From NCBI GenBank assembly GCA_963806015.1, contig CAWDWM010000008.1, positions 57,337 through 121,336 of the forward strand: a stretch of 64,000 nucleotides of DNA, written 5' to 3'. The stretch is from an uncultured Actinomycetes bacterium (lineage in GTDB: Bacteria; Actinomycetota; Thermoleophilia; Solirubrobacterales; Solirubrobacteraceae). The number at the start of each line of letters is the position of its first letter. Positions within the stretch are counted from its first letter, which is position 1. Under the pieces are notes generated by a model, which worked only from the letters and a program-made list of their open reading frames with translations, searched no databases and was not told where the DNA came from. Below are positions 10,213-26,313 of the stretch, piece by piece. Both the position numbers and the translations under genes were made by a program.

Positions 10213-10448
10213 ACACCCCTGTGGCCGGCGGCTGAATGTGTTGCGAGATGCACGCGAACTGCGCAGAAGCTGCGCGCCCGCGGAGCCCGCCCGCGCCCCG
10301 ACCGCCGGTAACTCCTCACCGTCGGTGAGCAGTTTGAGCCGCGCGTGGCGTTCTCGGAAGGTCGCAGTGATCCGCTCCTACAGGTCGTGCGCAATAGCAC
10401 CCAGAACGCGCCATGCGGGTGGGGCGCTCGACCAGGAGGAGAACTCTC

Positions 10449-10889: not shown

Positions 10890-11983
10890 TGCTGACCCGC
10901 CTGCGCGCCTCGTTGAACCCGGCCGAGTGGGGCCGCGCCGGGGGGCTTGCCGCCGCCGTCATCGGCCTGCACGTCGTCGGCTTCGGGCTGCTGTTCGGCT
11001 TCGTCGTGCCGCATCACTTCAGTCTCGGGGCGGGCGGTGCGTTCACGGCCGGCGTCGGCCTCACGGCCTACACGCTGGGGATGCGCCACGCGTTCGACGC
11101 CGACCACATCGCGGCGATCGACAACACGACGCGCAAGTTCATGGGCGAGGGCCAGCGGCCGCTGAGCGTCGGGTTCTTCTTCTCGCTGGGGCACTCGACG
11201 GTCGTCTTCGTCCTCGCGCTGCTGTTCTCCGTCGGCGTCAAGGCGCTGGCCGGACCCGTAGGGGACGGCGGTTCCAGCCTGCACTCGGTCACCGGGCTGA
11301 TCGGGACGGGCGTGTCCGGCACCTTTCTGTACCTGATCGCGGCGCTGAACCTGGTCGTGCTGGTGGGGATCGTGCGCGTCTTTCGCGACATGCGCCGCGG
11401 CGTCTACTGCGAGGATCAGCTGGAGGACCTGCTGCAGTCGCGCGGGCTGATGAACCGCTTCCTGGGCCGTTTCACCAGCGCGGTGCGCAAGCCGTGGCAG
11501 ATGTATCCGCTGGGGATCCTCTTCGGGCTGGGCTTCGACACCGCGACCGAGGTGGCGCTGCTGTTCCTGGCCGCGGGCGCCGCGGGGGCGGGGCTGCCGT
11601 GGTACGCGATCCTCTGCCTACCGGTGCTGTTCGCGGCCGGCATGTCGCTGCTGGACACGATCGACGGCTCGTTCATGAACTTCGCCTACGGCTGGGCGTT
11701 CTCGCAGCCCGTGCGCAAGGTCTATTACAACATCACCATCACGGCGCTCTCGGTGGCCGTGGCGCTGCTCATCGGCACCATCGAGCTGCTCTCGATCGCG
11801 GCCGACAGGCTCAGCCTCGACGGAGGCTTCTGGTCGTGGGTGGCCGGGATCGACCTCAACGCCGTGGGCTACATCGTGGTCGGCCTGTTCGTGGCGACGT
11901 GGGCGGTGGCGCTCGCGGTCTGGCGCTTCGGGCGCCTGGAGGAGCGCTGGGCGTTGCCCGGCTCGGCTCCGGAGAGCGCGTAG
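10889..11983 (+). CDS. NiCoT (HoxN/NixA/NhlF family) nickel/cobalt permease, copy 2, intact
   Basis: ATG 10889 overlaps the Fur stop (TGATG). The 364-aa product carries RHAFDADHIAAIDN, FFFSLGHSTVV and LGFDTATE motifs and about 8 TM helices. Confidence 0.9.
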   Translation: MLTRLRASLNPAEWGRAGGLAAAVIGLHVVGFGLLFGFVVPHHFSLGAGGAFTAGVGLTAYTLGMRHAFDADHIAAIDNTTRKFMGEGQRPLSVGFFFSLGHSTVVFVLALLFSVGVKALAGPVGDGGSSLHSVTGLIGTGVSGTFLYLIAALNLVVLVGIVRVFRDMRRGVYCEDQLEDLLQSRGLMNRFLGRFTSAVRKPWQMYPLGILFGLGFDTATEVALLFLAAGAAGAGLPWYAILCLPVLFAAGMSLLDTIDGSFMNFAYGWAFSQPVRKVYYNITITALSVAVALLIGTIELLSIAADRLSLDGGFWSWVAGIDLNAVGYIVVGLFVATWAVALAVWRFGRLEERWALPGSAPESA

Positions 11984-12018: not shown

Positions 12019-12681
12019 GTGCTCCTGCTCTTCGACATCGACGGCACGCTGTTGCTGAAGGCCACCCGAGCGCATGCGCAGGCGGTGGTGGAGGCGGTGC
12101 GCGTCGTCTACGGCGTGGTGGAACCGCCGCCGCAGGTGCGGATCGAGGCGGCGGGACGCACAGACCTCGAGATCGCCCGGCAGCTCGCGCTGCTGGGCGG
12201 CGTCGGCGCGGAGCGCTTCGACGACGGCCGCGACGACTTCCGCGCGGCGGCGGTGGAGGCCTACGCGCGGATGGCCGAGGACGATCTGAGCGCTCACGTC
12301 GCGCCCGGCGTGACCGAGGTGCTCGAGACGCTGGCCGAGCGCGACGACGTGCGCCTGGCGGTGCTCACCGGCAACCTCGAGCCGATCGCGCACCTCAAGC
12401 TCGCCCGCGCGGGGCTCGGCCGCTTCTTCGCGCACGGGCAGGGCGGCTTCGGCTCCGACCACGAGGACCGCCTCGAGCTGCCGGCCATCGCCCGTGCCCG
12501 CGCGGGCGGCTATCCGCGCAAGCGGACCGTGATCATCGGCGACACACCGCGCGACATCGCCTGCGCGCGCGCCGACCGGGTGCGCTGCATCGCGGTGGCC
12601 ACGGGCCCGTTCACCGCCGCGCAGCTGGTGGACGCCGACGTCGTCCTCGCGAGCGCGCACGAATTGCTCGGGGCGCTCTGA
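12019..12681 (+). CDS. HAD superfamily hydrolase (phosphoglycolate-phosphatase-like)
   Basis: GTG 12019 gives VLLLFDIDGTLL (motif I DxDGT at the N-terminus). Later motifs are LAVLTGN and IGDTPRDI. It is the only start codon between the upstream stop and motif I. Confidence 0.8.
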   Translation: MLLLFDIDGTLLLKATRAHAQAVVEAVRVVYGVVEPPPQVRIEAAGRTDLEIARQLALLGGVGAERFDDGRDDFRAAAVEAYARMAEDDLSAHVAPGVTEVLETLAERDDVRLAVLTGNLEPIAHLKLARAGLGRFFAHGQGGFGSDHEDRLELPAIARARAGGYPRKRTVIIGDTPRDIACARADRVRCIAVATGPFTAAQLVDADVVLASAHELLGAL

Positions 12682-13423
12682 CCTCGGTCACGTCGCGCAG
12701 GGTGAGGGCCACGAAGGCGGAGTTGGTGACCAGATAGCGACGGAACAGCCGCCGCGGCTCCTGCGCCAGCCGGAAGGCCCATTCGAGCCCGAAGCGCTGC
12801 AGCAGCCGCGGCGCCCGCTTGGTCACCCCCGCGACGACGTCGACGGCGCCGCCCACGCCCATCGAGAACGGAACGTCGAGCTCGGCATTCCAGCGCCCCA
12901 GGAAGTACTCCTTGCGCGGGGTGGACATCGCGACGAACAGCAGATCCGGGCTCGCGGCACGGATCTCGGCCGCGACCGCCGGCTCCTCGGCCTCTGAGAA
13001 GTAGCCGTCGCGGTAGCCGGCGAAGACAAGGCTTGGGTGAAGCTCACGCAGCCGCGCGATCGCACGGTCGAGGACGTCCGTCTGGGCGCCGAGGAAGTAC
13101 ACGCGATAGCCGCGGCGCTCCGCGAGTGCCAGAAGCTCCAGCATCAGGTCGATGCCTGCGACCCTGGTGGGCAGCGGATCGCCCAGCAGCCGGGAGGCCC
13201 ACACCACGGCCTGGCCGTCGGCGGTGACGAGGTCGCAGCCGTCGACCAGCCGCCGTAGGGCCTCGTCACGGCGCATGGCCACGAGCTTCGCGGCGTTGAC
13301 GGCCATGTGCTGCGCGCCCGCCCGTGTGCTCACGTAGTCGTCACAGCGCCGCGCGGCCTCGCCCATGTCGACGCGGTCGATGGCGCAGCCGAGGACCTCC
13401 ACGCGATCGGCGAGCACGGTCAT
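12611..13423 (-). CDS. WecG/TagA/CpsF family glycosyltransferase
   Basis: Starts at the internal ATG 13423 of ORF 12611..14254 (MTVLADRVEVLGCAIDRV...). Family motifs DLVTADGQAVVWASRLLG, YRVYFLGA, LLFVAMSTPRKEY and GVGGAVDV are present. ATGA-coupled to wecB. The 3' end overlaps the convergent HAD gene by 71 nt. Confidence 0.85.
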   Translation of the reverse strand: MTVLADRVEVLGCAIDRVDMGEAARRCDDYVSTRAGAQHMAVNAAKLVAMRRDEALRRLVDGCDLVTADGQAVVWASRLLGDPLPTRVAGIDLMLELLALAERRGYRVYFLGAQTDVLDRAIARLRELHPSLVFAGYRDGYFSEAEEPAVAAEIRAASPDLLFVAMSTPRKEYFLGRWNAELDVPFSMGVGGAVDVVAGVTKRAPRLLQRFGLEWAFRLAQEPRRLFRRYLVTNSAFVALTLRDVTEVRAPRAIRARSRGRRRRPPAARR

Positions 13424-14535
13424 GCGGCGGCCTCCATGGGTTCGCCGCGGAGGGCCGCGGCAATGACGTCGGCCACCCGCCGGCCGGCGCGGCCGTCCCA
13501 TCCCTCGATGGTCGCCGGGCGGCGCTCCAGGGCATCGGGACGGATGCGCGCGATGGCCGCGGGATCGTCGCCGAGCAGGACGTTGGTCCCGTGGGTGATC
13601 GTGACCGGGCGCTCGGTGTTGCGGCGCAGCGTGAAGCAGGGAACGCCCAGCACGGCGGCCTCCTCCTGCACCCCGCCGGAGTCGGTCACGATCGCCGCGG
13701 CGCCGATCTCGAGGCCCAGGAAGTCGAGGTAGCCCAGCGGATCCAGGCAGCGGACGCCTGCGCCCTCGAGGCGGGACATGAGCCCATCGGCGCGCAGGCG
13801 CTCGACCGTGCGCGGATGGACGGGGAAGACGACGGGCACGGTTGCGGCCAGCGCCGCGAGTGCCGTCACGACGCGTCGCAGCTGGCCGGGCTCGTCGACG
13901 TTGGAGGGACGGTGCAGGGTGACGAGCACGTACTCGCCGCGCTGCAGGTCGAGCTGCCGCCATGGGCTGCGCTCGGCGGCACGTCCCTCGAAGCGCCGTA
14001 GCGAGTCGATCATCGTGTTGCCCACGAACCGGACCCGCTCCGCGTCGATCCCCTCTGCGGTCAGGTTCGTCACGGCCTCGGGGCTGTGCGTGAACAGCAG
14101 GTCGGCCATCCGATCGGTGAGGACCCGGTTGATCTCCTCGGGCATCGTCCAGTCGAACGAGCGCAGGCCGGCCTCGACATGGGCCACCGGGATGCCGAGC
14201 TTGGATGCGGCCAGCGTGGCGGCGAGCGTTGAGTTGACGTCGCCACCGACGCACACGAGATCGGGGCGCTCGTCGAGCAGGAGGCGCTCGAATGCCTCCA
14301 GCACGCGCGCCGTCTGCGCCCCGTGAGGTCCCGAACCGACGCCCAGGAAGACGTCGGGCTCAGGGAACCCGAGGTCCGCCAGCATCTCGGCCGACAGGCG
14401 CTCGTCGTAGTGCTGCCCGGTGTGGACCACCCGTTGGGTGACCTCAGGCCGGTCCGCCAGCGCCTCGATGACAGGGGCCATCTTGACGAAGTTCGGGCGC
14501 GCACCGACGACTTGGACCACGCATCCAGACGTCAT
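13420..14535 (-). CDS. wecB: UDP-N-acetylglucosamine 2-epimerase (non-hydrolysing)
   Basis: Starts at ATG 14535 (MTSGCVVQVVGARPNFVKMAPV...). Motifs HTGQHYD, GDVNSTLA, HVEAGLRSFD and TDSGGVQEEA are present. Confidence 0.9.
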   Translation of the reverse strand: MTSGCVVQVVGARPNFVKMAPVIEALADRPEVTQRVVHTGQHYDERLSAEMLADLGFPEPDVFLGVGSGPHGAQTARVLEAFERLLLDERPDLVCVGGDVNSTLAATLAASKLGIPVAHVEAGLRSFDWTMPEEINRVLTDRMADLLFTHSPEAVTNLTAEGIDAERVRFVGNTMIDSLRRFEGRAAERSPWRQLDLQRGEYVLVTLHRPSNVDEPGQLRRVVTALAALAATVPVVFPVHPRTVERLRADGLMSRLEGAGVRCLDPLGYLDFLGLEIGAAAIVTDSGGVQEEAAVLGVPCFTLRRNTERPVTITHGTNVLLGDDPAAIARIRPDALERRPATIEGWDGRAGRRVADVIAAALRGEPMEAAA

Positions 14536-14709
14536 CGGCCCATGACCCAAGCAGATCGTTTTGCCATCCGGAAGTCCGGGATGTGAACACTTTCGATCAT
14601 CACGAACTCCCGGAACATGGGGCATCGCGTGGCGTCGCGGCTATTCGCCCGCGCCTGTCAGCCGTCGAACCCACCGGGCTCGCGAGGCGGCGCGAAGCCC
14701 CGACCTATC

Positions 14710-15915
14710 ATGGCCGCGTCCATGGCCCTTCCGGCTGCCGAACAGCGCGACGACGCCCTGGCGGATCGCTGCCTCGACGCCGCGCTCGCCCTGAGCGAGT
14801 CGGCCGCGCGTGCCGACTTCCACGGGCCCGACCCCTTCGACGGGCTCTGGTGGCACTGGCCGCGCCCGCTCGTCGGCGGCCGGCGCCGCCGGCAGGCGAT
14901 CGCGCAGCTGCACGCGCGCTCGCCGTTCGACCTGCGCCGCCTCTATCGCCGCCGCCATCCGCGTACCGCGAAGGCACTCGGGGTCTTCGCCTCGGTCGAG
15001 GCGCGCGCGCAGCGCCTCACGCGCGCCGCTGCGCCTCGGGCCGGCGGACTGCGCGCCCTGCAGATCCTCGACGCCGACCGCGGCGCCGGACCGGACGGCT
15101 GGGGCTACCCGTGGGACGTGCAGACGCGGTGGAGCTTCTATCCGGCGGGCAGCCCGAACGTCGTCGTCACCGCCTTCGCGGCGAGCGGGCTGCTGGAGGG
15201 CGCCGCCGCTCTGGATCGGCGCGACCTCGCCGACCGTGCGCACGCGGCCGCGCGCTGGGTCCGCGACGAGCTCTGGATCGAGCCCGAGGGCTACTTCGCG
15301 TATCACGGGGGCCGGCCCGTGAACATCCACAACGCCAGCCTCCTGGGCGCGTGGTTGGTCGACGTCGCGGGTGGGGCGGATCCCCTCGCCCGGGAGCGGG
15401 TCTTTCGGGCCGTGCAGCGAACGCTCGACGCGCAGCGCCCCGATGGGTCGTGGCCGTACGGCGAGGGGCGCAACCTCGCCTGGGCGGACTCCTTTCACTC
15501 GGGCTACGTGCTGCTGTGCCTGGACCGCCTGCGCGCCGTGGACGGCCGCGTCAGCGAAGCGGTGCAGCGCGGCGCGGCGCACTACCGCGGGTTCTTCGAC
15601 GCATCAGGGCGCGCGCGACTCTGGGCGGACAAGGCATTCCCCGAGGATGCGCACTCGGCCGGCACGGGCCTGAGCACGCTGGGCGCCCTCGTACGGCGCG
15701 GGCTGGTCGAGCGCGAGCTGCTCGAGCGCGTGGCGCGACGCGTCCTCGATCACGGCCTGCGCGATGCGCGCGCCGTGCACCGGCGCTACCGCTGGGGCGC
15801 GACGACGGTGCGCTACCTGCGCTGGTGCGACGCGCACGTCGCACTGGGGCTCGTCGATGCCGCTGCGGCGTTGCGTGGGGTGGACGACCTCGCGCCGCCT
15901 CCGAGCGAACGCTAG
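14710..15915 (+). CDS. hypothetical protein, probable alpha/alpha-toroid (six-hairpin / prenyltransferase-like) fold
   Basis: Good codon bias over the ORF. Repeated hairpin-type motifs include GWGYPWDVQTRWSFYPAGSPNVVVTAF and QRPDGSWPYGEG...WADSFHSGYVLL. I did not recognise a catalytic family. The start is uncertain (ATG 14710; ORF open from 14617). Confidence 0.55.
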   Translation: MAASMALPAAEQRDDALADRCLDAALALSESAARADFHGPDPFDGLWWHWPRPLVGGRRRRQAIAQLHARSPFDLRRLYRRRHPRTAKALGVFASVEARAQRLTRAAAPRAGGLRALQILDADRGAGPDGWGYPWDVQTRWSFYPAGSPNVVVTAFAASGLLEGAAALDRRDLADRAHAAARWVRDELWIEPEGYFAYHGGRPVNIHNASLLGAWLVDVAGGADPLARERVFRAVQRTLDAQRPDGSWPYGEGRNLAWADSFHSGYVLLCLDRLRAVDGRVSEAVQRGAAHYRGFFDASGRARLWADKAFPEDAHSAGTGLSTLGALVRRGLVERELLERVARRVLDHGLRDARAVHRRYRWGATTVRYLRWCDAHVALGLVDAAAALRGVDDLAPPPSER

Positions 15916-16085
15916 GAGAAGCAGGAGGGCGCGTTCTGCGCCCCGCAACCCGAACCGATCGGGCTACCCTGGGGAACGTCGCTGAAGCCGCCGCCAACGA
16001 CGGCGGTCATCTCGACAAGATCGCCGTAGTCGCGAACTGTCGGCGGAACGTACGTCTTGCGCCCGGCTTGGTGCACATCGGCCAT
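15912..16085 (-). CDS. lasso peptide precursor (A peptide), 57 aa
   Basis: Hand-translated; it falls below the ORF-track size cut-off. Sequence: MADVHQAGRKTYVPPTVRDYGDLVEMTAVVGGGFSDVPQGSPIGSGCGAQNAPSCFS. GGGAG lies 9 nt upstream of the ATG. The leader fits YxxPxLxxxGxxxxxTx with Thr at -2. The core has a single Asp at position 8 and a C-terminal Ser. It lies 84 nt downstream of the cyclase gene on the same strand. Confidence 0.8.
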   Translation of the reverse strand: MADVHQAGRKTYVPPTVRDYGDLVEMTAVVGGGFSDVPQGSPIGSGCGAQNAPSCFS

Positions 16086-16169
16086 GCTTGATCACTCCCG
16101 TCGGAGTTCGACGCTCAGGACCCTAGAGCGGCGCCGCCTGTCCCGCAAGGGCACCGTTCGACGGACGCC

Positions 16170-17984
16170 TCACCCATGCTCCAGCCACTGCTCGGCGGTG
16201 ACGACGTTCCAGACGTGCACCGCCCACGGGCGCCATCCGGGCTCCCCGACCGCCGGCGGACGGTCGAGATGATCGCGGTGCAGCCGCCGCAGGTCGACAT
16301 ACGCGCCGACCGCAGCCCGGCGCTCGTCGAGCAGCCGCCGGACCCGCTCGAGGTTGGCCGGGCTGGAGAGCACGCGGTGGTGCAGGGCCGAGAAATCGCG
16401 CTTGTCGCGGCGCGCGAGGACGTCCGGCGTCAACGCCCCGTGTAGGGCCTCGCGCACCAGCGGCCGCGAGGTGACCGGGTCGAAGTTCGTCTCGGGCGGC
16501 AGGCGCAGCGCCAGTTCGACCAGCCCCAGCTCCAGGAGCGGCGAGCGCGCCTGGACCGCCCCCATGGCGCCGCGCCGGCGCAGGTAGTCGGCGAGGTCGG
16601 CGGTCTCGCGTCCACGCGTCAGGATGTCGGCCAGATAGGCCCACCAGCGCGGCCCGTCGAGGAGCTTCCATCGCCACGGGTCCTGGCTGTCGCGGTACAG
16701 CTCAGCCGGGCCGGGACGCAGCCACGCGGGGGCGTAGCGGGCCGCGGGCCGTCGCCGGCGGAACTGCTCGTGGAGGGTCGGCGCGAGCGCCCCGCGGACG
16801 CCGACGCTCGTGAAGACGCGCCGGACGTGGCGCAGCGGCGGGTCATCGCCCAGCCACGGGTGCCGGCGCGAAAGCCGCCAGGCCGACAGCGGTCGCAGGC
16901 GGCGCACGCGGTCGGCGATGAGGAAGTGCGCGGCGCCGAAGAGCTCGTCGCCGCCCTGGCCGTCGAGCACGACCTTGGCTCCGAGCCGGGCCGCCGCGGC
17001 GATCAGCGGTGCCTCGATCAGGATGCCCGGCGTGGGCAGCGGCAGCTCCCAGGCGCGCAGATATGTCTCGGCGGCGTCGAGTGGCTCGCGCTCGTCGATG
17101 GCGACCGTGGTGAGAGCGAGGCCCGTGTCCTCGGCCACCCTGCGCGCCCACGTCGTCTCGTCGAACTCGGATTCGGCGAAGGCGGCCGCGATCGCCTGAA
17201 GGTCGGGGGCGCGGGGTGCCGCCACCGCCGCGACGACCGATGAATCCAGTCCGCCGCTGAGCAGCAGTGCGCTGCGGCCGTGCTCCGGCAGCGCCTGCTG
17301 CACGGCCGCCTCCAGCTCCTCGTGCAGCCGGGCGGCAAGCTCGGCTCGCGGCGCCTGCAGCGGCGGCCGGTAGCGCGGCGTCCAGTACCGGCGCTCCGCG
17401 CGCCCGGCGTCGGACAGGCCGAGCAGGCAGCCGCCTCCGAGTCGGCGGATGCCCTGGTAGAGCATGCGCCCGTCGGGCACGCTGTGCTCGACGAGGTGAT
17501 GGGCGAGGGCGAGCTCGTCGGGATCGGGGCGGCGGCGCAGCAGGGCCAGCAGCACGCCGATCTCGGTGGCGAAGCACAGGCGCGGCCCGTCGTGGAAGGT
17601 GAAGAGCGAGCGCCCACCGAGCTGGTCCTGCGCGAGGAGGCCGCGGCGGCCCGCCTCGTCCCAGAGGACGAGGGCGAAGGGCCCGCGGATGTGCTCGAGC
17701 AGTCGCTGCTCCCAGCGCCGGTAGCCCGCCGCCAGCGCGCCGGCCACCGCGGTGTCCGGACCGAGGCCAAGGTGCTCGCGCAGTGCGCCGGGCCTCTGTA
17801 TGCGCCCCGCGATGCCGGCCAGGACCCCGGCTGCGCGAGCGGGCGCTGCGCACGCCATCGCCAACGCGCCGGCCTCGACGACCGTGGCGCCCGGCAGCGC
17901 TCGGCGCAGCCGCTCGCCTTCCCTGCCGATCCCTCGTGGGTCGTGGACCCCGGCGAGCTCGCCCGCGAGCAGCGCCGCCATCAC
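16170..17984 (-). CDS. lasso peptide cyclase (asparagine synthetase B-like, C protein)
   Basis: 604-aa ORF with an N-terminal amidotransferase-like domain and the PP-loop LLLSGGLDSSVVAAVAA of the Asn-synthase domain. The start (GTG 17984 / ATG 17981) overlaps the stop of the kinase gene. Confidence 0.85.
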   Translation of the reverse strand: MMAALLAGELAGVHDPRGIGREGERLRRALPGATVVEAGALAMACAAPARAAGVLAGIAGRIQRPGALREHLGLGPDTAVAGALAAGYRRWEQRLLEHIRGPFALVLWDEAGRRGLLAQDQLGGRSLFTFHDGPRLCFATEIGVLLALLRRRPDPDELALAHHLVEHSVPDGRMLYQGIRRLGGGCLLGLSDAGRAERRYWTPRYRPPLQAPRAELAARLHEELEAAVQQALPEHGRSALLLSGGLDSSVVAAVAAPRAPDLQAIAAAFAESEFDETTWARRVAEDTGLALTTVAIDEREPLDAAETYLRAWELPLPTPGILIEAPLIAAAARLGAKVVLDGQGGDELFGAAHFLIADRVRRLRPLSAWRLSRRHPWLGDDPPLRHVRRVFTSVGVRGALAPTLHEQFRRRRPAARYAPAWLRPGPAELYRDSQDPWRWKLLDGPRWWAYLADILTRGRETADLADYLRRRGAMGAVQARSPLLELGLVELALRLPPETNFDPVTSRPLVREALHGALTPDVLARRDKRDFSALHHRVLSSPANLERVRRLLDERRAAVGAYVDLRRLHRDHLDRPPAVGEPGWRPWAVHVWNVVTAEQWLEHG

Positions 17985-19030
17985 GCCGGGCGCTCATTCA
18001 AGGCGATCTCGCCATGGCCGAGGACGGCATCGGCGACGTCGGTGGATGTCGCGTCGGCGCCCGCGCGGACCTGGTAGAGCGGGACGCTGCGTGCGACGGC
18101 GGCGCAGGACTCGAGCTGGCGCCGCAGGCGGTCGGGCGCCGTGAAGTACGAGAGGAAGGCATTGCCGAGCAGCAGCGAGGGGTCATACGGGCGCACCGGC
18201 ACGATGCGAACGCCACGCTCGTCGGCGGGGCGGACCAGGTGATACGTGAGGGCGAGCGGCAGTCGCTCGGGCGCAAGCGCGGGCGTGACGTGCCACTTCT
18301 CGGCTCGCACCTGCACGGCGCCCAGGGTCCGGCGCTCGCAGGGCGTCAGGCGGCGGAGCTCGCGGGGATCGATGCGCGCCACGGTGCCCCCGCGGTGGGC
18401 CTGGACGGTGGCGCCGGCCACCTCGATCGCGAGCACGTCGTCGGTCACGAGCCGGGCACCACGGGCCACGAGGCGGCTGGCCAGCGTCGTCTTGCCTGCC
18501 CCCGAGCCGCCGAGGAAGGCGATCGCCCGGTCGCGGAGCGCGACCGCGCTGGCGTGGAAGACGTCCATGCCTCGCAGCACCGCGGCCAGCGGAAGGACCT
18601 GGGCGAGGACGAGGCGCTCCCAGCGCCAGGCCGGCCCGGCCGGCGGCGCGCCCATGACGGTGCGGCCGTCGGGGGCGACGAGATAGCACCCGTGCCGTGG
18701 CGCCCAGACACGGAAGCCCACGTCGTCATCGGCCTGCACCGAGAGCCCGACCCGCCCGTCGACGAGCCGGCGCTCGAGCAGCGGGCGCGGCCGGGCCTGG
18801 CGCCAGCGGCGATCGACGGCGGCGCGCGGGGCTCGCTCGAGCGTCGTGTCGGCCGGCGACCCGGCAGCGCCGACGGCGGCCACGCTCTCGAGCGCGAGGG
18901 TGCCGGCCAGGGCCAGCCCGAAGGCCTGCCCCGACCACGAATCGCCGAGTGGCGGGTGGGGCGGGCTCGGCGGCGAAGGTCGGGCGACGTGACCGCTGCC
19001 CACGGCCGCGACGATAGCGCCCCTCGCCAT
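17981..19030 (-). CDS. HPr kinase-like serine kinase associated with lasso peptides
   Basis: ATG 19030 (MARGAIVAAVG...) was chosen so the gene does not run into the divergent ABC gene. The P-loop FLGGSGAGKTTLASRLVARGARLVTDDVLAIE is typical of the HprK C-terminal-domain fold found in paeninodin-type clusters. Confidence 0.75.
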   Translation of the reverse strand: MARGAIVAAVGSGHVARPSPPSPPHPPLGDSWSGQAFGLALAGTLALESVAAVGAAGSPADTTLERAPRAAVDRRWRQARPRPLLERRLVDGRVGLSVQADDDVGFRVWAPRHGCYLVAPDGRTVMGAPPAGPAWRWERLVLAQVLPLAAVLRGMDVFHASAVALRDRAIAFLGGSGAGKTTLASRLVARGARLVTDDVLAIEVAGATVQAHRGGTVARIDPRELRRLTPCERRTLGAVQVRAEKWHVTPALAPERLPLALTYHLVRPADERGVRIVPVRPYDPSLLLGNAFLSYFTAPDRLRRQLESCAAVARSVPLYQVRAGADATSTDVADAVLGHGEIALNERPA

Positions 19031-19091
19031 CGCGGAGGTCGCGACGGCGCGCGTGTGTGCGACCCTACGGCGGTCCAGCGAGGGCGCCTGC

Positions 19092-19823
19092 ATGCCGTTG
19101 ACCGACGACGATCGCTTCAGCGTGACTCCCCAGGCTCGCGCTGACCCGCCGTCGGCTGCGCCCGGCGAGTCGCTGCTTGCCGTCGAAGGCCTGTGCAAGC
19201 ACTGGCGCGGACGGCCCACGCCGACGCTCGACGACCTCGACCTCGACCTGTACCCCGGCGACGTCGCCCTGGTCACCGGGCGCAACGGCGCCGGGAAGAC
19301 CACGCTGCTGCGGATCATCGGGGGACTGGTGGCGCCCGATCGAGGCGAGGTGCGGCTCGACGGCATGGCGCTGGGCACGCGCCGCCGCGCCTACCAGCGC
19401 CAGATCGGTCTGCTGACGCCGGGCGACCGTGGGCTCTACGCCCGGGTGACGGTGGCGCGTCACCTGGACCTCTGGGCGCGGCTCGCGCTGCTCGACGCGC
19501 AGGCGCGGGCGGCAGCCATCCGGTCGGTCCACGCGGGCTTCGATCTCGAGGAGATCGCCGATCTGCGCGTCGACCAGCTGTCGATGGGACAACGCCAGCG
19601 CGTGCGCCTGGCGCTGGTCTTCCTGCATGCGCCACGACTCGTGCTCCTCGACGAGCCGGCGACGTCGCTCGACCTAGAGGCCCTCGAGCTCGTGCGCCGC
19701 GCCGTGGACGATCTCGCGCGGCGCGGCGGCATGTGCCTGCTCGTCGCGCCCGAGGGCGCCGACACGGGGATCGCGGTCGGACGGGCGCTCGTCCTGCGCG
19801 ACGGACGGCTGGAGCGCGCGTGA
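19092..19823 (+). CDS. ABC transporter ATP-binding protein (lasso cluster exporter)
   Basis: Walker [12 protein letters not shown], signature LSMGQRQR and Walker B LVLLDEP. The start is uncertain (ATG 19092; ORF open from 19053). Confidence 0.85.
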   Translation: MPLTDDDRFSVTPQARADPPSAAPGESLLAVEGLCKHWRGRPTPTLDDLDLDLYPGDVALVTGRNGAGKTTLLRIIGGLVAPDRGEVRLDGMALGTRRRAYQRQIGLLTPGDRGLYARVTVARHLDLWARLALLDAQARAAAIRSVHAGFDLEEIADLRVDQLSMGQRQRVRLALVFLHAPRLVLLDEPATSLDLEALELVRRAVDDLARRGGMCLLVAPEGADTGIAVGRALVLRDGRLERA

Positions 19824-20626
19824 GCGCATTGCGCCCTCAGCTCGCGGCCGCCGCCGGCATCTTCCGGCGCGACATGACCGTCTATCTGAGCTATCGCTGG
19901 CGGCTGGGCACCCAGTACATCGGCGTCCTCTTCAGCCTCGCGGTCTTCTATTACATCTCGCGCCTGGTGCGGGTCGAGGCCTTCGCGTCGCCTGAGGACT
20001 ACTTCGCCTTCGCGGCGGTCGGGGTGATCATCCTGCAGGTCCTGCAGTCGACGCTCGACATCCCCGCCGCGGTGCGTCAGGAGCTGGTGGCCGGGACCTT
20101 CGAGCGCATGGCCGTCTCCCCGTTCGGTCCGGTGGCGAGCATCCTCTCGCTCTTCCTGTTCCCGATCGCGTCGGCGATCATCACCATGCTGGTCACGCTG
20201 GTCCTCGTGGCCGTGGTCTTCGGAGTGGACCCGAGCTGGTCGCGGGTGCCGCTCGCGATACCGGTGGCGGCGGTGGGCGCCCTCGCCCTGGGGGCGATCG
20301 CCCTGCTCTTCGTGGCCATGATCGTCCGCTTCAAGCAGGCCCCGGGCGCCGCCTACGTCCTGGCGGCGATCTCCCTGGTCGCGGGCTTCTACTTCCCGGT
20401 CGAGCTGCTGCCGTGGTGGCTCGGCTGGGCCTCGGACGTGCAGCCCTTCACCCCCGCCGTCGACCTCCTGCGCCATCTGCTCGTCGGCCTGCCGCTCCGG
20501 GCCTCGGCGTGGGGCGACGTCGCCAAGCTCGTCGGCTTCTCCGCCGTTCTCCTGCCGCTCGGGCTGGCCGGGCTGGCGTTCGCCATCGATCGCAGCCGGC
20601 GCCTGGGCACGCTGACGGAGTACTAG
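19820..20626 (+). CDS. ABC-2 type transporter permease
   Basis: GTG 19820 overlaps the ATPase stop (GTGA). The protein is a six-TM hydrophobic type (VSALRPQLAAAAGIFRRDMTVYLSYRW...) typical of the ABC-2 family. Confidence 0.8.
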   Translation: MSALRPQLAAAAGIFRRDMTVYLSYRWRLGTQYIGVLFSLAVFYYISRLVRVEAFASPEDYFAFAAVGVIILQVLQSTLDIPAAVRQELVAGTFERMAVSPFGPVASILSLFLFPIASAIITMLVTLVLVAVVFGVDPSWSRVPLAIPVAAVGALALGAIALLFVAMIVRFKQAPGAAYVLAAISLVAGFYFPVELLPWWLGWASDVQPFTPAVDLLRHLLVGLPLRASAWGDVAKLVGFSAVLLPLGLAGLAFAIDRSRRLGTLTEY

Positions 20627-20935
20627 GTGCAGCCGATCGAGCCAGGCGGTCGCGCCCATCCCGAACGGCTCGCAGTCCGGGTGCCCGAGCACGTCGTATA
20701 CCGCGACTTCGCCGAGCAGACCGTCGCCCTGAACCTGCACACCGGGCGCTACCACGGTCTGAACGAGACCTCGGCGGCGATGCTCGAGGCGCTGCGCGAG
20801 GCCCCGACCGTCGCCGCGGCCGCGCAGCGGCTCGCACCGTCGTGGGACGTGGATCCCGGTGTGCTGCTCGCTGATCTGCTGGACCTCTGCGACGGTCTCG
20901 AGAGCCGGGGCCTGATCGAGACCCATGTCGCATAG
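20627..20935 (+). CDS. PqqD-family RiPP recognition element (lasso B1 protein)
   Basis: 102-aa protein starting directly after the permease stop. VYRDFAEQTVALNLHTGRYHGLNETSAAMLEAL matches the PqqD-like fold pattern. Confidence 0.8.
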   Translation: MQPIEPGGRAHPERLAVRVPEHVVYRDFAEQTVALNLHTGRYHGLNETSAAMLEALREAPTVAAAAQRLAPSWDVDPGVLLADLLDLCDGLESRGLIETHVA

Positions 20936-21332
20936 CGACGCGACGCTGCGCGATCGCACGGCGCTGGCGGCCGAGGTGCTGGTCACCTACGGCCAGGTGC
21001 GCTGGTCGGTTCGCCGGCGCGACCTGCCCACCGTCGTCGCCGCCCTGCGCGCATCCCAGCGGCGCCACGCGCGCTGCGGGCCTCTGGACGCCGACGATCG
21101 CCGCCTCGCCGCGGCCGCCGTACGCGTCCTGGAGCGGCTCCCCGGCGACTCGCGCTGTCTCACACGATCGCTGGTCGTGCTCGCGATGCTCGCGCGACGC
21201 GGCGTCGACGTACGGCTCGTGCTCGCCGCCCGGCCCACGCCGACGTTCTCGGCCCATGCCTGGATCGAGCGCAGCGGGCGTCCTCTGCTGCCGACGCGCG
21301 AGTTCGACGACGCCCGGCTCGCGGAGCTGTGA
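20925..21332 (+). CDS. lasso peptide leader peptidase (transglutaminase-like B2 protein)
   Basis: 135-aa protein overlapping B1 by 11 nt. The catalytic Cys context is DSRCLTRSLVVLAMLARRG and the His context is FSAHAWIERSG, as in the McjB C-terminal domain family. Confidence 0.85.
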   Translation: MSHSDATLRDRTALAAEVLVTYGQVRWSVRRRDLPTVVAALRASQRRHARCGPLDADDRRLAAAAVRVLERLPGDSRCLTRSLVVLAMLARRGVDVRLVLAARPTPTFSAHAWIERSGRPLLPTREFDDARLAEL

Positions 21333-22528
21333 CCCGCGCGCTGCTTGCGCACGAAGAGCTCGTCCTGCTGGTGGCGGGCACGGCGGCCCGGCGGCGCGCG
21401 AACGCGGGACGGTTGAGCGAGCTGCTGGGACAGGTCGCATGGGATCCGCTGCTCGCCGAGCTCGAATTGCAGCGGCTCGTGCCGCTGCTCGGCGGCCGGG
21501 TCCTCGAGCTGGCCGGCACGAGCGCCCCCGCGGCGTTCGCCGATGCCGTTGCCGAGCAGACCGAGGCGGCCCGGCAGGCCGGCGGGCTGATGGAGCTGAC
21601 GACGCTGCGCGTCGCCGCCGCGCTCGAGACGGCCGGGATCGCGAACGTGCCGCTGAAGGGGCCGCTGCTCGCCCGCTCCCTGCACGGCGATCCCGGCGCG
21701 CGCTTCTCGCGTGACATCGACGTGCTGGTGGGGCGCGAGGACCTCCAGCGCGCGGCCGCCGCGCTCGAGCCGCTCGGCTGGCGCTTGGAGCGCGGCGCCG
21801 GCGAGCCGGTGCTGCACCTGGCGCTCGCCCACGAGTCGGGGCTCCCCGAGGTGGAACTGCACTGGCGCCTGCACTGGTACGAGACCGAGTTCGCGGCGCG
21901 CGCGCTGGCGCGCGCGCAGCCCGAGCCCGACGGCGTCAGGCGCCTGCAGGACGTCGACGAGCTCACTGCGCTGCTGCTCTACCACGCCCGCGACGGCTTC
22001 GCCGGCCTGCGCCACGCGATCGACGCTGCGGCGTGGTGGGACGCGCACGCCACAGCGCATGACCGCGTGCTGCTGGCGGAGGTGGCACTGGAGCACCCGG
22101 CGCTGGCGCGCGCGCTGTCGACCAGCGCGACGGTGCTCGATCAGCTCGTGGGCATCCCCGCCGACCGGCTGGTGCCCGGCGCATGCGACCTCCCCTGGGG
22201 AGCGAGGCGAGCCGCCACGCTCGCCAACCCCCTCATGCGCGGCACCCCCGAGCAGATCACCGCCGAGATCACGCTGGTCGACGCCCTCCTCGCCCCCGAG
22301 GGCCAGCGCCGCGCGTTCGTGCGACGGCGCGTCCTGGTGGGCCGTGACGACCTGCCGCCCGCCACGGGGCGCCGGTCGCTCGCCGCCGCTCGCGCCGAGC
22401 ACGTGCTGCGGGTCCTGCGCCGGCTGCCGCTCGCGCTGGTGCGTCCGCGCGCGCGGCTGCCGTCGCCGCCTGAGCCCGACGGCGTGCCCGTCATCCACCG
22501 CCCGGAGGACCTGCACCTGGCGGAGTGA
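21329..22528 (+). CDS. nucleotidyltransferase family protein (NTP_transf_5-like), lasso-cluster tailoring candidate
   Basis: GTGA-coupled to B2. NVPLKGPLLARSLHGDPGARFSRDIDVLV...LHWRLHW matches the uncharacterised nucleotidyltransferase family frequently linked to lasso clusters. Confidence 0.75.
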   Translation: MTRALLAHEELVLLVAGTAARRRANAGRLSELLGQVAWDPLLAELELQRLVPLLGGRVLELAGTSAPAAFADAVAEQTEAARQAGGLMELTTLRVAAALETAGIANVPLKGPLLARSLHGDPGARFSRDIDVLVGREDLQRAAAALEPLGWRLERGAGEPVLHLALAHESGLPEVELHWRLHWYETEFAARALARAQPEPDGVRRLQDVDELTALLLYHARDGFAGLRHAIDAAAWWDAHATAHDRVLLAEVALEHPALARALSTSATVLDQLVGIPADRLVPGACDLPWGARRAATLANPLMRGTPEQITAEITLVDALLAPEGQRRAFVRRRVLVGRDDLPPATGRRSLAAARAEHVLRVLRRLPLALVRPRARLPSPPEPDGVPVIHRPEDLHLAE

Positions 22529-22607
22529 CCGTCGCCCGGCTCAGTGAGGGCGGCCAGTGCGCATCGGCAGGCGCCGCGGCATCCGCGGAGCCTCCCGCTA
22601 GCTGGCC

Positions 22608-23915
22608 TCAGCGGTGGTCGACGATGCGCTCGACGACTCGTGCGAGCAACTCCTCCGCCCGTCGCGCTTCCGCCCTCTGGGCTTCCACCCCTGCGCGTAG
22701 AATCCCGGTGAGGCTCGGGAGATCGTCGAGGAATGCGCGCGTACGGTCGAGCAGTCGACCCTCGGCGACGCCGTCGATGGGCACTACGTAGTCGTCAAGG
22801 CCGAGTGTTCGGAAGAGCTCGGACGTCTTGAACTCATACGCGATGGGAAGCACGGGCGTTCCAACCGTGAGCGCCAGAATCGCCGCGTGCATGCGGGTGG
22901 CAATCACGATGTCGAACTCTGCGTAGGTCGCGGCCAGCGCGTCCGGCGCATGGAAGGCGTGGTCGACCACGACACGGTCGCGGACGTCATAAGGGAGTTC
23001 AGCGGTTACGGCAGCGGCGGCCGCGGAGTCATTCGTCCAGTATTCCGGCACGCCCTGGCAGGTCGACAAGAAGGTCACGCTGGCTGCGCGCTGCCGCACG
23101 AGCCAGGTCACTGTCTCGGCCACCGCTCGTCGAAAGGCGGATACGGCCGGATCTGACGCACCGGCGCCGGGGGGCCAATCGCGCACCGACACTGCGACGG
23201 ATCGAATCGGCGCGGGCGCCCGGACGTCAAACGGCCGAGCGCCCGTGCGGCCGAAGACAGCGTCGGCCACGACGTGAACTGCGCCGGCCGGCACGCCTAG
23301 CTCGAGCACATGCTGGCGTGAGCGCTCGTCGCGCAACAGCACCAGCGGCGAGTTCGAGAACAGCTTCGCGAGGTGGCGGCGGTTACGGCGGATGCGGAAC
23401 GGCCCGAGCGACTGCGTGTAGAAGACGACGGGAACTCCGAGCGCCGCGGCCATGCGCAGCTCGAAGACGCGAGGGCCGATGCCGTAGCGTTCGACGAGGT
23501 ACGTACCGCCGGTGCTGACGACGAGGTCGAGCCCGGCGAAGTCTGCGATGCGTCGGCGCTCTCCGTCGCGTAACAGCGCTCGTGCCAGCGGCCTGGTCGC
23601 GCGGTGGCGCCACAGGCGGGCGGCTCCCAGGAGCCGGACCTCGTTAGCGGCGGCGAGAATGCGAACTCCCCGGCGCGGTGTCCGCTTCAGTTGCCCGATC
23701 GGCGCCAGCGACGATCTCCAGCGGAATGTCGGGTGGTAACGGGCGGCCGCGGCAGGCTGGGAATCGTGCACCTCGATCAGCGCATCGGGGGCCGCACGGC
23801 GCACCGACTCGATGACCGCGACCGCGATTGCGGCGTCCCCGCCGTTCAGCGCGACGGTGTTGATCAGCGCTATGCGCGGCGCGTCCTGGCGAGTCGGTGT
23901 GGCGGAGGCGCTCAC
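22608..23915 (-). CDS. polysaccharide pyruvyl transferase family protein
   Basis: 435-aa protein with a GTG start. NGGDAAIAVA, VVSTGGTYL, SLGPF, LLRDERS and ATRMHAAILAL fit the CsaB/WcaK-type pyruvyl transferase pattern. Confidence 0.8.
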   Translation of the reverse strand: MSASATPTRQDAPRIALINTVALNGGDAAIAVAVIESVRRAAPDALIEVHDSQPAAAARYHPTFRWRSSLAPIGQLKRTPRRGVRILAAANEVRLLGAARLWRHRATRPLARALLRDGERRRIADFAGLDLVVSTGGTYLVERYGIGPRVFELRMAAALGVPVVFYTQSLGPFRIRRNRRHLAKLFSNSPLVLLRDERSRQHVLELGVPAGAVHVVADAVFGRTGARPFDVRAPAPIRSVAVSVRDWPPGAGASDPAVSAFRRAVAETVTWLVRQRAASVTFLSTCQGVPEYWTNDSAAAAAVTAELPYDVRDRVVVDHAFHAPDALAATYAEFDIVIATRMHAAILALTVGTPVLPIAYEFKTSELFRTLGLDDYVVPIDGVAEGRLLDRTRAFLDDLPSLTGILRAGVEAQRAEARRAEELLARVVERIVDHR

Positions 23916-23921
23916 ACGCGT

Positions 23922-25487
23922 TCAGCGGCCCTGTTCGACGCGCGCCGCCTCCGCCCGCCGTCGGCGCTGCGGGCCACCAAGACGCCTGATGACCGCCCAC
24001 GGCCCTGAGGAGGGAACCAGTCGGCCCGCAAGCATGCCCACGTCGGCCCACGTCGCCGGAAAGCGCGTGCGCATGATCGCGGCGTAGACCGTCAGACCTG
24101 CCGTACCCGACACTGCCATGGCCACGAAGACGGGAAGCGATGCGTCCAGGCACAGCCTCAACCCCAGCGTGGCGACGGCTAGCTGCGGCAGGCCGGCCGT
24201 CAGCGCTGGGATCACGTCGTCGCGGACAGTCTCGAGGATGGGAATCCCCACCCGACGCTCAACGATGAGGTGCTGCATGGTCACGAAGGCAACGAGCCGG
24301 ACGGCTACCACCGCGACGCATACGGCCGTCACGCCGAACGAGACTGACGCCAGCACCGCCAGCGTGTAGGCGACGAAGACAACCAGGTTGTAGACCAGCA
24401 AGGCGCGCGGATGGCCAGTCGCCATCAGAAGGGGTCCGGTGCCGGTGCCCACGGCGGCGATCATTCCCCCGACGGCCAGGATCTGCGTGAGGCCGCCGGC
24501 ACCCGCCCAGCGCTCGCCATACAACCAGGGCACAAAATGCGGCGCGACGGCGATCAACGCGAACAGCAGCGGAAAGAGCACGGTGGCGTGGACGCGGATC
24601 ATGCGCGCCCGCACGCGGCGCATCTCCTCGAAGGTCTTGGCGCGCGAGAGCACAGGAAACGCCACGTTAAGCAGGATCTGACTCACCTTGGACTGGTAGT
24701 CCGATCCCAACGCGAAAGCGCGCATGTACAGACCAACCTGAAACGCGGGTATGAACGCTGCCAGCAGCAGGTAGTCGACGTTACGCACGGCCGCATAGAG
24801 CATCGAGGCTCCGGTGACCGGGCTTCCGTAGTGGACCAGTTCTCGCATCTCGGCCGGATGCCAGCCCGGCCGCGGCGGCCGCGAAAGCAGCCACCCGAGG
24901 GCGGCGGTGACTCCCGACGCGGCGATCCCTCCGATGATGAGCGACTCGCCCTCCATTCCGCAGAGGGCCAGCACGACCGCCACCCCCGGTCCGATCACGC
25001 TCGCGCTGGCTTCGATCAAGCCGAGGCGACCGAAGCTGAGCTGTCGCTGAAGCTGCGCTATCGGCACCGCCGTCAGGCCGGCGAGAAGCCACACGGGCGA
25101 GGAGAGCGCCAGGAAATAGGCGGTGCGGCCCCCGAAGATCAACGGCGCCGCGGTGACGGCGAAGAGCAGCATCAGCATCGTTCCGAGCGCGCCCACGCTC
25201 AACGACACGAACGAGGCCGCCTCGTAGTGGGCCCGGCGCGGCACCTTGAGTTGAACCAGGAATGAGCCCACGCCCTGCTGCGAGATAGCCAACGCGAGCA
25301 TGCCGAAGAACACCGCCGCGGCGGTGCGCCCGAACTCGTCGGGCGCGACCAGGCGCGCGAGGGCAATACTCGCGATCAACGCGGCCGACTCGGCAATCAG
25401 CCGCGTGAGGCTCATCCATCTGACACCGGAGAGCGTCTGGTCGCGCAGGCTCCCGGCGGGACGGTCCGGCGCCGGCTGGCTGGGCAT
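23922..25487 (-). CDS. oligosaccharide flippase (Wzx / polysaccharide biosynthesis protein family)
   Basis: Multi-TM protein with about 12-14 helices. ATG 25487 overlaps the stop of the upstream GT2 gene (TGATG). Confidence 0.8.
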   Translation of the reverse strand: MPSQPAPDRPAGSLRDQTLSGVRWMSLTRLIAESAALIASIALARLVAPDEFGRTAAAVFFGMLALAISQQGVGSFLVQLKVPRRAHYEAASFVSLSVGALGTMLMLLFAVTAAPLIFGGRTAYFLALSSPVWLLAGLTAVPIAQLQRQLSFGRLGLIEASASVIGPGVAVVLALCGMEGESLIIGGIAASGVTAALGWLLSRPPRPGWHPAEMRELVHYGSPVTGASMLYAAVRNVDYLLLAAFIPAFQVGLYMRAFALGSDYQSKVSQILLNVAFPVLSRAKTFEEMRRVRARMIRVHATVLFPLLFALIAVAPHFVPWLYGERWAGAGGLTQILAVGGMIAAVGTGTGPLLMATGHPRALLVYNLVVFVAYTLAVLASVSFGVTAVCVAVVAVRLVAFVTMQHLIVERRVGIPILETVRDDVIPALTAGLPQLAVATLGLRLCLDASLPVFVAMAVSGTAGLTVYAAIMRTRFPATWADVGMLAGRLVPSSGPWAVIRRLGGPQRRRRAEAARVEQGR

Positions 25488-26185: not shown

Positions 26186-26313
26186 CGCCCCCAGCCTACT
26201 TGCGATCACGACGCGGCCCGCGGCGCCGCAGCGAGGTCCGGCGGCATCCGGGCACCTGCCTGCCACGCTGTAAGCCATCTCATCCCCGTCGTTCGCGCGC
26301 CAGGGGGCCGGCG

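Follow-up and report, generated by a model that had tools for sequence, protein, structure and literature searches.

Lasso peptides tailored by a dedicated kinase have been characterised from Bacillota, where they comprise paeninodin, the substrates of ThcoK and pseudomycoidin, and from Proteobacteria, which are represented by the kinases SyanK and BsfK (PMC8498205, PMC9266682, PMC10368454, PMC6993621). Clusters that combine such a kinase (K) with a nucleotidyltransferase (N) have been described as psm, which directs the synthesis of pseudomycoidin (PMC6993621), and as bsf (PMC10368454). The N protein PsmN adds hexoses (PMC6993621), while the related LppN was inactive without its presumed partner (PMC13381572). 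Here, a cluster of this kind is described from a 64,000-nucleotide stretch of contig CAWDWM010000008.1 of an uncultured actinobacterium, the whole of which is referred to as the window. Judged from its genes and their predicted products, the segment 15912-22528 is very likely a complete and intact split-B lasso-peptide cluster with two tailoring enzymes, an HprK-like kinase (K) and a nucleotidyltransferase-fold protein (NT), in an actinobacterium of the Solirubrobacterales type. The original prediction, made from the letters of this DNA, had recognised two divergent operons holding every part of a split-B pathway, and profile searches, alignment to BsfK, catalytic residues, predicted folds and synteny now agree with it on this point. 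It had further named paeninodin and pseudomycoidin, both from Firmicutes, as precedents for the pairing of kinase and nucleotidyltransferase. This is correct for psm, which has both genes, but has to be withdrawn for paeninodin, since the pade cluster has a kinase and, unlike the window, no N gene (PMC6993621). Nor is the pairing confined to Firmicutes, because the bsf cluster of Bradymonas, a member of the Proteobacteria, also has both genes (PMC10368454).

The cluster consists of eight genes in DNA of about 73-77% G+C, arranged divergently as K-C-A on the minus strand and as ATP-binding cassette (ABC) ATPase, ABC-2 permease, B1, B2 and NT on the plus strand. All eight open reading frames are intact and lie where they had been placed before. 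The features are as follows.

15912-16085, minus strand: precursor gene A, 57 amino acids (aa); leader aa 1-28 (16002-16085), core aa 29-57 (15915-16001), stop codon at 15912-15914
16170-17984, minus strand: lasso cyclase C, 604 aa, an Asn-synthetase homologue by Pfam Asn_synthase and GATase_7
17981-19030, minus strand: HprK-like peptide kinase K, 349 aa, assigned by alignment to BsfK, catalytic residues and predicted fold
19031-19091, no strand: divergent intergenic region of 61 bp between K and the ABC ATPase, presumed bidirectional promoter region
19092-19823, plus strand: ABC transporter ATPase, 243 aa, Pfam ABC_tran; alternative GTG start at 19053
19820-20626, plus strand: ABC-2 type permease, 268 aa, DrrB-like exporter subunit, Pfam ABC2_membrane
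20627-20935, plus strand: B1, PqqD-like recognition element, 102 aa, Pfam PqqD
20925-21332, plus strand: B2, transglutaminase-fold leader peptidase, 135 aa, NCBIfam lasso_biosyn_B2 and Pfam Transglut_core3
21329-22528, plus strand: NT, NTP_transf_5 nucleotidyltransferase-fold tailoring enzyme, 399 aa, PF14907, PsmN-like in position

Every junction that was read is an overlap or an abutment, which argues that each operon is translationally coupled throughout. On the plus strand, reading of the sequence bears out the junctions given originally: the stop of the ABC ATPase and the start of the permease have a GTGA at 19820-19823 in common, the permease stop TAG (20624-20626) abuts the GTG start of B1 at 20627, B1 and B2 overlap by 11 nt (20925-20935), and B2 and NT meet in a further GTGA at 21329-21332. 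On the minus strand, K and C are joined in the same way by a GTGA at 17981-17984, and the ATG of the precursor is preceded at a distance of about 9 nt by the ribosome-binding site GGGAG. Within the 61-bp spacer between the operons, the block GTGTGCGAC.CT.C.GCGG is kept in close relatives.

Profile searches place C, B1 and B2 in the families that had been expected for them, namely Asn_synthase, PqqD and Transglut_core3/lasso_biosyn_B2. The cyclase matches Pfam Asn_synthase with an E-value of 6.2e-46 (158 bits) and GATase_7 with 4e-11. Its N-terminus, MMAALL, is devoid of a Cys at position 2, and since this nucleophile is missing, C is not a glutamine-hydrolysing Asn synthase. B1 matches Pfam PqqD with 1.7e-13 (51 bits against a cut-off of 23.4) and the NCBIfam model lasso_PqqD_Strm with 1.4e-10. 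For B2, the NCBIfam model NF033537 (lasso_biosyn_B2) yields 63.3 bits against a cut-off of 33 and Pfam Transglut_core3 an E-value of 1.7e-16; Cys78 (in DSRCL) and His111 (in AHAW) are invariant across the related loci and in BsfB2. The exporter is composed of an ATPase (Pfam ABC_tran, 2e-27), the identical protein being called as 243 aa on an ENA contig discussed below (L001), and a permease (Pfam ABC2_membrane, 1e-11). The motifs quoted beforehand are all present, that is SGGLDSS in C, LVTDDV in K, where GGSGAGKTT can be added, and SRCLTRSL and SAHAWIE in B2.

The assignment of K as an HprK-like P-loop protein, likewise anticipated, is carried by its homology to BsfK, its catalytic motif and its predicted fold, while the thresholds of the curated HprK profiles are not reached. 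BLASTP aligns K to BsfK with 27% identity over 224 aa (E 2e-10); the BsfK sequence, translated from the bsfK gene printed in PMC10368454, is that of the only characterised kinase aligned. The BsfK residues needed for catalysis, H148, G163, K169, S170, D186 and D187 (PMC10368454), align with H159, G177, G179, K180, D197 and D198 of K, in which H159, K180, D197 and D198 are the equivalents of H148, K169, D186 and D187. The elements H159, G177-x-G179-K180 and D197-D198 vary little or not at all among 30 homologues and the kinases of ten related loci, and a His-Lys-Asp-Asp catalytic motif is on record for lasso kinases (PMC9266682, PMC10368454). Because PDB sequence searches with K and NT returned only P-loop-level or chance matches and were thus uninformative, fold searches were carried out on AlphaFold models of both proteins. 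The model of K, built on an alignment of homologues (pLDDT 89, pTM 0.87), has its best PDB fold matches in phosphoenolpyruvate carboxykinases (PEPCK) and HprK/P, with Foldseek E-values of 1e-7 to 1e-5, and the PEPCK/HprK class of this predicted fold is the one expected for an HprK-like kinase. Homologues of K form 316 protein clusters, all of them metagenomic and none named beyond 'hypothetical protein'; their precomputed Pfam matches list PF27840 'ScmC'.

NT belongs to the NTP_transf_5 family, as had been proposed, with a match to PF14907 of 3.5e-33 (115.7 bits against a cut-off of 31.2). Residues K110, G111, D129 and D131, the last two forming a DxD motif, are invariant in 33 homologues; in PsmN, mutation of D134/D136 inactivates the enzyme (PMC6993621). 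The AlphaFold model of NT (pLDDT 92) gives weak but consistent nucleotidyltransferase-fold matches to MenT toxins, ANT(2'')-Ia and FKRP, with target-normalised TM-scores of 0.56-0.65 for the ANT(2'')-Ia entries 5kqj, 4wqk, 5cfs and 4xje at weak E-values of 4e-3 to 5e-2. In the window, NT directly follows B2, and the same order is found in L003, L014-L017 and L020-L025, where these and similar designations stand for related loci on other contigs. An N gene directly behind B2 or fused to it has been reported elsewhere (PMC8498205, PMC6993621), the B2-NT fusions being known from Firmicutes (PMC8498205). Relatives of NT with at least 59% identity all adjoin B2, B1 and the permease (L020-L025, L027, L029).

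The precursor has homologues in 52 clusters among 5.8 billion proteins, all of them unnamed, which, together with the occurrence of the eight-gene unit on independent contigs, argues that the 57-aa reading frame is a real gene beyond chance. Among 28 aligned homologues, the leader residues Y12, P15, D19, G21, L23, V24, E25 and T27 and the core residues G32, S35 (core Ser7), D36, P38, Q39 and G40 are invariant, while C47, C55, F56 and S57 are conserved to at least 90%. Lasso leaders are recognised in a register of Tyr(-17), Pro(-14), Leu(-12) and Thr(-2) (PMC10368454). In the window precursor, Y12 (-17), P15 (-14), V17 (-12) and T27 (-2) fall into one single register, in which the leader ends at Ala28 and the core starts at V29; the precursor thereby contains a YxxPx[LIV] leader motif, a Thr at -2 and an Asp/Glu within core positions 7-9. 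The predicted core is VVGGGFSDVPQGSPIGSGCGAQNAPSCFS, with D36 as core Asp8, and an eight-residue ring connecting Val1 to Asp8 is predicted. Both conserved cysteines are located in the tail (C47 is core Cys19, C55 is core Cys27), and a tail disulfide between Cys19 and Cys27 in the manner of class IV lasso peptides is possible. The calculated monoisotopic mass of the predicted lasso is 2663.17, or 2661.16 with the disulfide. For decorated forms the calculated values are 2741.13 (one phosphate), 2821.09 (two phosphates), 2903.18 (phosphate and Hex), 2944.20 (phosphate and HexNAc), 3147.28 (phosphate and two HexNAc) and 3070.18 (phosphate and AMP). Beyond this family, a wider set of precursors with the leader YE.P.h.DYGDLVE[LVM]TA carries other cores, most of them with Asp9 rings. 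Many of these different cores share a [T/C]F[S/T] motif at the C-terminus or close to it, while the position preceding the ring Asp holds T, L, A or E (FTD, LTD, FLD, CLD, HAD, SED) and not a conserved Ser or Thr.

A genome scan with the precursor alignment retrieved 11 loci, all of them in metagenome-assembled genomes labelled as Solirubrobacterales, Solirubrobacteraceae, Paraconexibacteraceae, 'Actinomycetes' or Candidatus Gaiellasilicea. In the near-identical contig L001 (ENA ERZ25039495:contig_31400), precursor, K, ABC ATPase and B2 are identical to those of the window and identity across the cluster amounts to 99-100%; its NT is frameshifted, and immediately beyond NT the two sequences diverge, so that the window belongs to another, closely related assembly. 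Look-ups of the exact sequences of C and NT returned no record. The same divergent eight-gene unit is found in L003, L014-L017, L020, L024 and L025 with varying flanks, which consist of WecB/WecG/unk432 and NicO/FUR genes in close relatives, and, in L016 and L017, of Mur ligases at one end and Wzz/Wzy/glycosyltransferases at the other. A constant unit between changing flanks places the functional boundaries at the stop codons of the precursor and of NT, and the limits 15912-22528 originally drawn for the cluster can therefore be retained. Of the precursor-anchored loci, 13 span enough sequence for the whole cluster; all 13 contain K, C, B1, B2 and the ABC pair, and 12 of them contain NT.

Several observations weigh against reading this segment as a tailored lasso cluster. 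Lasso-specific and other curated models are missed by a number of the proteins: C stays below the cut-offs of the NCBIfam cyclase models NF033535 and NF033561, and also of the Asn synthase model TIGR01536; B1 reaches 41 bits against 70 in the lasso_PqqD subfamily models; the leader scores 16.7 bits against 19 in NF033521; and K scores 26.6 bits (8e-6) against a gathering cut-off of 33.3 in Pfam Hpr_kinase_C, 31.6 against 200 in TIGR04355 and 25.9 against 200 in TIGR04352. Core residue 1 is unusual as well, being Val in the window and varying among 50 homologues (25 with Gln, 13 with Val, 5 with Thr, 5 with Asn and 2 with Met), whereas most lasso peptides characterised so far begin with Gly, Ala, Ser or Cys. 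The tail is poor in bulky residues capable of acting as a plug, with Phe28 as its sole aromatic residue. With respect to tailoring, the C-terminus is exactly ...CFS in only 25 of 50 family members, one further residue (Ser, Thr, His or Lys) follows in 18, and a few have longer tails, the extra residues behind CFS numbering 1-8. A strictly C-terminal Ser target, as in the paeninodin precedent named originally, is consequently insecure; the window peptide itself does end in ...CFS. Moreover, relatives of NT at 40-46% identity mostly occur in polysaccharide loci without lasso genes, which rules out NT as a lasso-specific family and suggests that this enzyme family was recruited from glycan biosynthesis; such a distribution fits a role in sugar chemistry better than one in nucleotide addition, in keeping with the hexose additions by PsmN. 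Finally, a scan for promoters and terminators of the E. coli type, using the E. coli consensus, revealed no promoter and one terminator at chance level.

A TAGGGT box resembling an actinobacterial -10 element was noted twice on the minus strand (within 16086-16169 and 19031-19075), where it precedes the ATG of the precursor by 34 nt and that of K by 31 nt. The box before the precursor is kept in L003 and L014 despite the diverged spacer around it, and the precursor may have its own promoter; the box before K reads TAGCGT in L003 and is not kept in L014. Rfam and tRNA scans of the whole window gave no matches.

By analogy with paeninodin, pseudomycoidin and bsf, a pathway can be drawn that the cluster, if expressed, might follow. 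The PqqD-like B1 would bind the precursor via the YxxPxV...T(-2) leader, and K would phosphorylate a serine of the still-linear precursor, most likely that of the CFS motif (core Ser29). B1 together with B2 would then cleave behind Thr-Ala, and C would join the N-terminus of Val1 to the side chain of Asp8, giving an eight-residue macrolactam with the tail threaded, in which Cys19 and Cys27 may form a disulfide. NT, as a PsmN-like enzyme coupled to B2, would add a further group to the phosphate, probably a sugar, and the two-component ABC-2 exporter would secrete the product. In such a peptide Phe28, a bulky modified Ser29 and the Cys19-Cys27 bridge could lock the tail, echoing a suggestion made for pseudomycoidin (PMC6993621). 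The product is pictured, as in the original prediction, as a peptide that probably receives a phosphate and after that a further decoration.

As regards the target of K, Ser29 is favoured because the CFS-like motif turns up again in other core types accompanied by the kinase, which is not true of the residue preceding the ring Asp. The competing view that K phosphorylates the ring serine, core Ser7 beside the ring-closing Asp8, instead of the C-terminal one is improbable. It gains from the invariance of Ser35 noted above, from the half of the precursor family without a terminal Ser and from BsfK, which targets the ring residue Ser3; it loses from the wider leader family, which keeps the kinase with T, L, A or E in the place of Ser7 and the [T/C]F[S/T] motif near its C-terminus, and from the Bacillota kinases and SyanK of Sphingobium, which act on a C-terminal Ser (PMC8498205, PMC9266682). 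It is quite improbable that the cluster is silent or yields a branched-cyclic, unthreaded or unstable peptide, so that no true lasso accumulates. Unmodified pseudomycoidin was indeed isolated unthreaded (PMC6993621), bsf stayed silent in each of five hosts (PMC10368454), and bulky residues are few in the tail; however, none of the eight open reading frames is disrupted and their proteins are conserved in many lineages, from which selection on a functional product can be argued, and the conserved Cys19, Cys27, Phe28 and (phospho)Ser29 could keep the tail from slipping out of the ring. Very improbable is a division of labour in which NT, and perhaps K, serve an adjacent cell-envelope polysaccharide locus beside a plain, untailored lasso cluster. 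Although the 40-46% relatives reside in polysaccharide loci (Wzy, GT1/GT2/GT4, sulfotransferase) without lasso genes and the window cluster sits between glycan genes, NT has a GTGA in common with B2, as K has with C, all relatives of NT of at least 59% identity adjoin lasso genes, the eight-gene unit retains K and NT while the flanks change, B2-NT fusions occur in Firmicutes (PMC8498205), and K is homologous to a proven lasso kinase.

A further alternative to the eight-gene limits concerns two genes on the far side of the precursor, which are possibly accessory.

12611-14535, minus strand: WecB (13420-14535) and a WecG/TagA-family glycosyltransferase (12611-13423)

Both are assigned by Pfam (Epimerase_2, 2e-100; Glyco_tran_WecG, 2e-61). 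It is conceivable, though rather unlikely, that the locus is larger than the eight-gene unit and that WecB (UDP-N-acetylglucosamine (UDP-GlcNAc) 2-epimerase) and WecG/TagA work together with NT on a phospho-glycan at the phosphoserine, a sugar being added by NT and then N-acetylmannosamine (ManNAc) by WecG, in a manner resembling the undecaprenyl-diphosphate (Und-PP)-GlcNAc-ManNAc linkage unit. WecB and TagA form a normal housekeeping pair for cell-wall glycopolymers, which counts against such an involvement, as does their location in a separate operon behind an unrelated convergent gene. In close relatives, synteny runs past WecG into the NicO/FUR genes and the adjacency may be plain lineage synteny; L016 and L017 have the same core family and all eight genes but no WecB/WecG within 9 kb, and WecG is nearby in only 3 of 80 NT-anchored metagenome loci. 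On the other hand, the distance between WecB-WecG and the precursor is 1.4-3.3 kb in the window, L001-L003, L014 and L015, and NT and WecG are fused, overlapping or closely packed in three other related loci, all of which (L019, L041, L056) carry K and/or a homologue of the Asn-synthase cyclase. In L019, the end of a C gene and two precursors (…YEAPEVVDYGTLAELTA|GQSDGRFTD…LTFSG) are directly followed by an NT-WecG fusion of 647 aa (P0344; 1399-3342). In L041, NT and WecG overlap by 4 nt (9962-11949) beside K and an Asn-synthase homologue, in a neighbourhood that also contains genes for a PAP2 phosphatase, a flippase, a sulfotransferase and GT2 enzymes and in which no B1/B2 was detected; in L056 (1-3792), one strand holds a closely spaced row in the order WecG-ABC-permease-NT-K, and an Asn-synthase homologue lies convergent to it. 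L041 and L056 may represent a B-less architecture, no B1/B2 being present in the available sequence. The idea of a glycosyl-transferring partner is also in line with the addition of hexoses to the phosphate by PsmN (PMC6993621), with the proposal of the authors of the LppN study that a partner is encoded outside the core cluster (PMC13381572) and with the weak fold match of NT to FKRP, a phospho-alditol transferase.

In its general form, this idea would have the N enzymes of kinase-linked lasso clusters and WecG/TagA, the latter using UDP-ManNAc from WecB, build a phospho-disaccharide on a (pyro)phosphorylated peptide serine, a proposition that is rather unlikely too and marginally more so. 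The disaccharide would mimic the undecaprenyl-PP-GlcNAc-ManNAc linkage unit of wall glycopolymers; if true, the product would be the first phospho-glycan-bearing lasso peptide from Actinomycetota, and the missing partner of PsmN and LppN would have been named. The NT-WecG fusion and coupling provide a concrete candidate partner for 'N' enzymes.

The surroundings of the eight-gene cluster, which remains the preferred delimitation, offer several further observations. The 432-aa reading frame unk432 (14617-15915, plus strand; 401 aa as called in L001) converges on the precursor, the stop codons of the two genes overlapping in CTAG, and it occurs with 82-100% identity beside WecB/WecG in L001-L003, L014 and L015. 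It was considered as a cluster member and rejected, having no sequence match in Pfam, NCBIfam or PDB and being absent from L016, L017 and L004, whose precursors belong to the window family; neither is it homologous to the uncharacterised proteins that adjoin precursors elsewhere. Further out on this side, repeated NicO-type metal transporter genes (6835-10889) lie beside a FUR-family regulator (10413-10889), downstream of DUF4331 (4106-5674) and TPR (5681-7045) genes, and this block also borders the cluster in L001, L014 and L015. Behind NT, the G+C content drops from about 0.76 to 0.66-0.70 (about 22600-36000), and genes for a pyruvyl transferase (22608-23915) and a Wzx-type flippase (23922-25529), both on the minus strand, follow, while L001 has different genes there, PMT_2 and a flippase that is only 41% identical. 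It looks like a strain-variable surface-polysaccharide locus begins exactly where the lasso cluster ends.

A multi-copy protein family without Pfam match is represented in the window at 43750-44889 (minus strand) and at about 34674-35577 (plus strand), and elsewhere in L006 (7989-9857), L007 (8029-9906), L019 (3339-4784 and 7100-8614) and L016 (16768-17634). One copy in L019 opens with a hydrophobic, signal-peptide-like stretch, and copies adjoin lasso precursors or NT in several loci; this may reflect no more than an abundance of the family in glycan loci of these genomes. Genes for LuxR-family (GerE) regulators are located directly beside the precursor in relatives with Asp9 rings (L006 10253-10969, L007 10261-10959, L009 12549-12995, L011 10216-10842), while the window cluster is devoid of such a regulator. 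Tandem HprK-like kinase paralogues, two each, are found in some related lasso clusters (L011 5255-7547, L075 6119-8004). In several long-read metagenome loci NT, B2, C or K is frameshifted (L001 3602-4757; L015 668-1336; L003, L009, L012), probably owing to assembly errors and not to decay.

In the literature searched, which did not cover the JBC 2016 paeninodin and RODEO papers, neither a kinase-linked lasso cluster from Actinomycetota nor a connection of PF14907 with lasso peptides nor the window precursor was found, and the core and leader strings had no printed match. Likewise, an actinobacterial version with this precursor had not been recognised when the cluster was predicted. From this work emerges a precursor family of more than 50 clusters, in which the leader is fixed, residue 1 is unusually free, and two tail cysteines and the terminal Cys-Phe-Ser are conserved; the analysis also supplies exact boundaries and predicted product masses for expression work. 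Apart from the WecG lead, lasso genome-mining tools would be expected to flag the cluster.

Among the systems with which the cluster can be compared, class IV lasso peptides such as LP2006 and the felipeptins are actinobacterial and feature two tail cysteines joined by an intra-tail disulfide. The window peptide shares the two tail cysteines, and its conserved cysteines may form the same bridge; no kinase or nucleotidyltransferase is known from class IV clusters. Paeninodin (padeCAKB1B2D) and its Bacillota kin resemble the window in the split B protein and the C-terminal Ser, their kinase acting on the linear precursor prior to cyclisation (PMC8498205, PMC9266682). Paeninodin-type recognition elements, however, show a preference for leaders with a Trp, and the family has been described as confined to Bacillota (PMC13381572, 2026); with a Tyr at -17 of the leader and actinobacterial relatives, the window cluster falls outside the strict definition of this family by Trp-type leader and Bacillota host. 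The LPP peptides of Bacillota, a group of ribosomally synthesised and post-translationally modified peptides, have the same HprK-like kinase, recognition element and nucleoside triphosphate (NTP)-transferase module and are encoded in glycosyltransferase-rich loci, but they employ a signal-peptidase-like protease, lack both the cyclase C and B2, which the window has, and are not lassos (PMC13381572). Metanodin, from a soil metagenome, uses Asn1 as ring residue, as would 5 of 50 precursors of the window family, while its gammaproteobacterial cluster is of the fused-B ABC type without kinase or nucleotidyltransferase, unlike that of the window (PMC12670498). Since a ring-forming Asn1 was reported as a first in 2025 (PMC12670498), rings closed through Val1 or Gln1 are of some interest.

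The bsf cluster of Bradymonas sediminis (BsfA, B1, B2, C, D, K and N) shares both K and N with the window, and the B2 proteins of the two can be aligned around the catalytic Cys and His (PMC10368454). BsfA, in contrast, has Ile at -2, starts its core with Gly1 and ends in Asp, and BsfK phosphorylates the ring serine Ser3, whereas the window precursor has Thr at -2, Val1 and a terminal Ser; in addition, bsf is proteobacterial, encodes a fused D transporter, and its mature product has never been observed. Pseudomycoidin of Bacillus pseudomycoides (psmCAKB1B2ND) has the same C, A, HprK-like K, split B1/B2 and an N directly after B2, with A following C and the order B1-B2-N as in the window and a precursor that ends in Ser in both cases (PMC6993621). 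PsmN and PsmK were compared by their published description and not by sequence; on this basis the DxD pair D129/D131 of NT corresponds to D134/D136 of PsmN, and 5cfs and 4xje are structural matches published for PsmN, too (PMC6993621). The differences lie in the host (Bacillota against Thermoleophilia-type Actinomycetota), in the organisation (one operon against two divergent ones), in the exporter (a single fused D transporter against an ABC-2 ATPase with a separate permease) and in the peptide, an Ala1-Asp9 ring without cysteines being opposed to a predicted Val1-Asp8 ring with two conserved tail cysteines. Taken together, the parts list and the logic of the window cluster are already known from other phyla, and the cluster extends the kinase- and NTP-transferase-tailored lasso peptides to uncultured soil actinobacteria of the Solirubrobacterales type.

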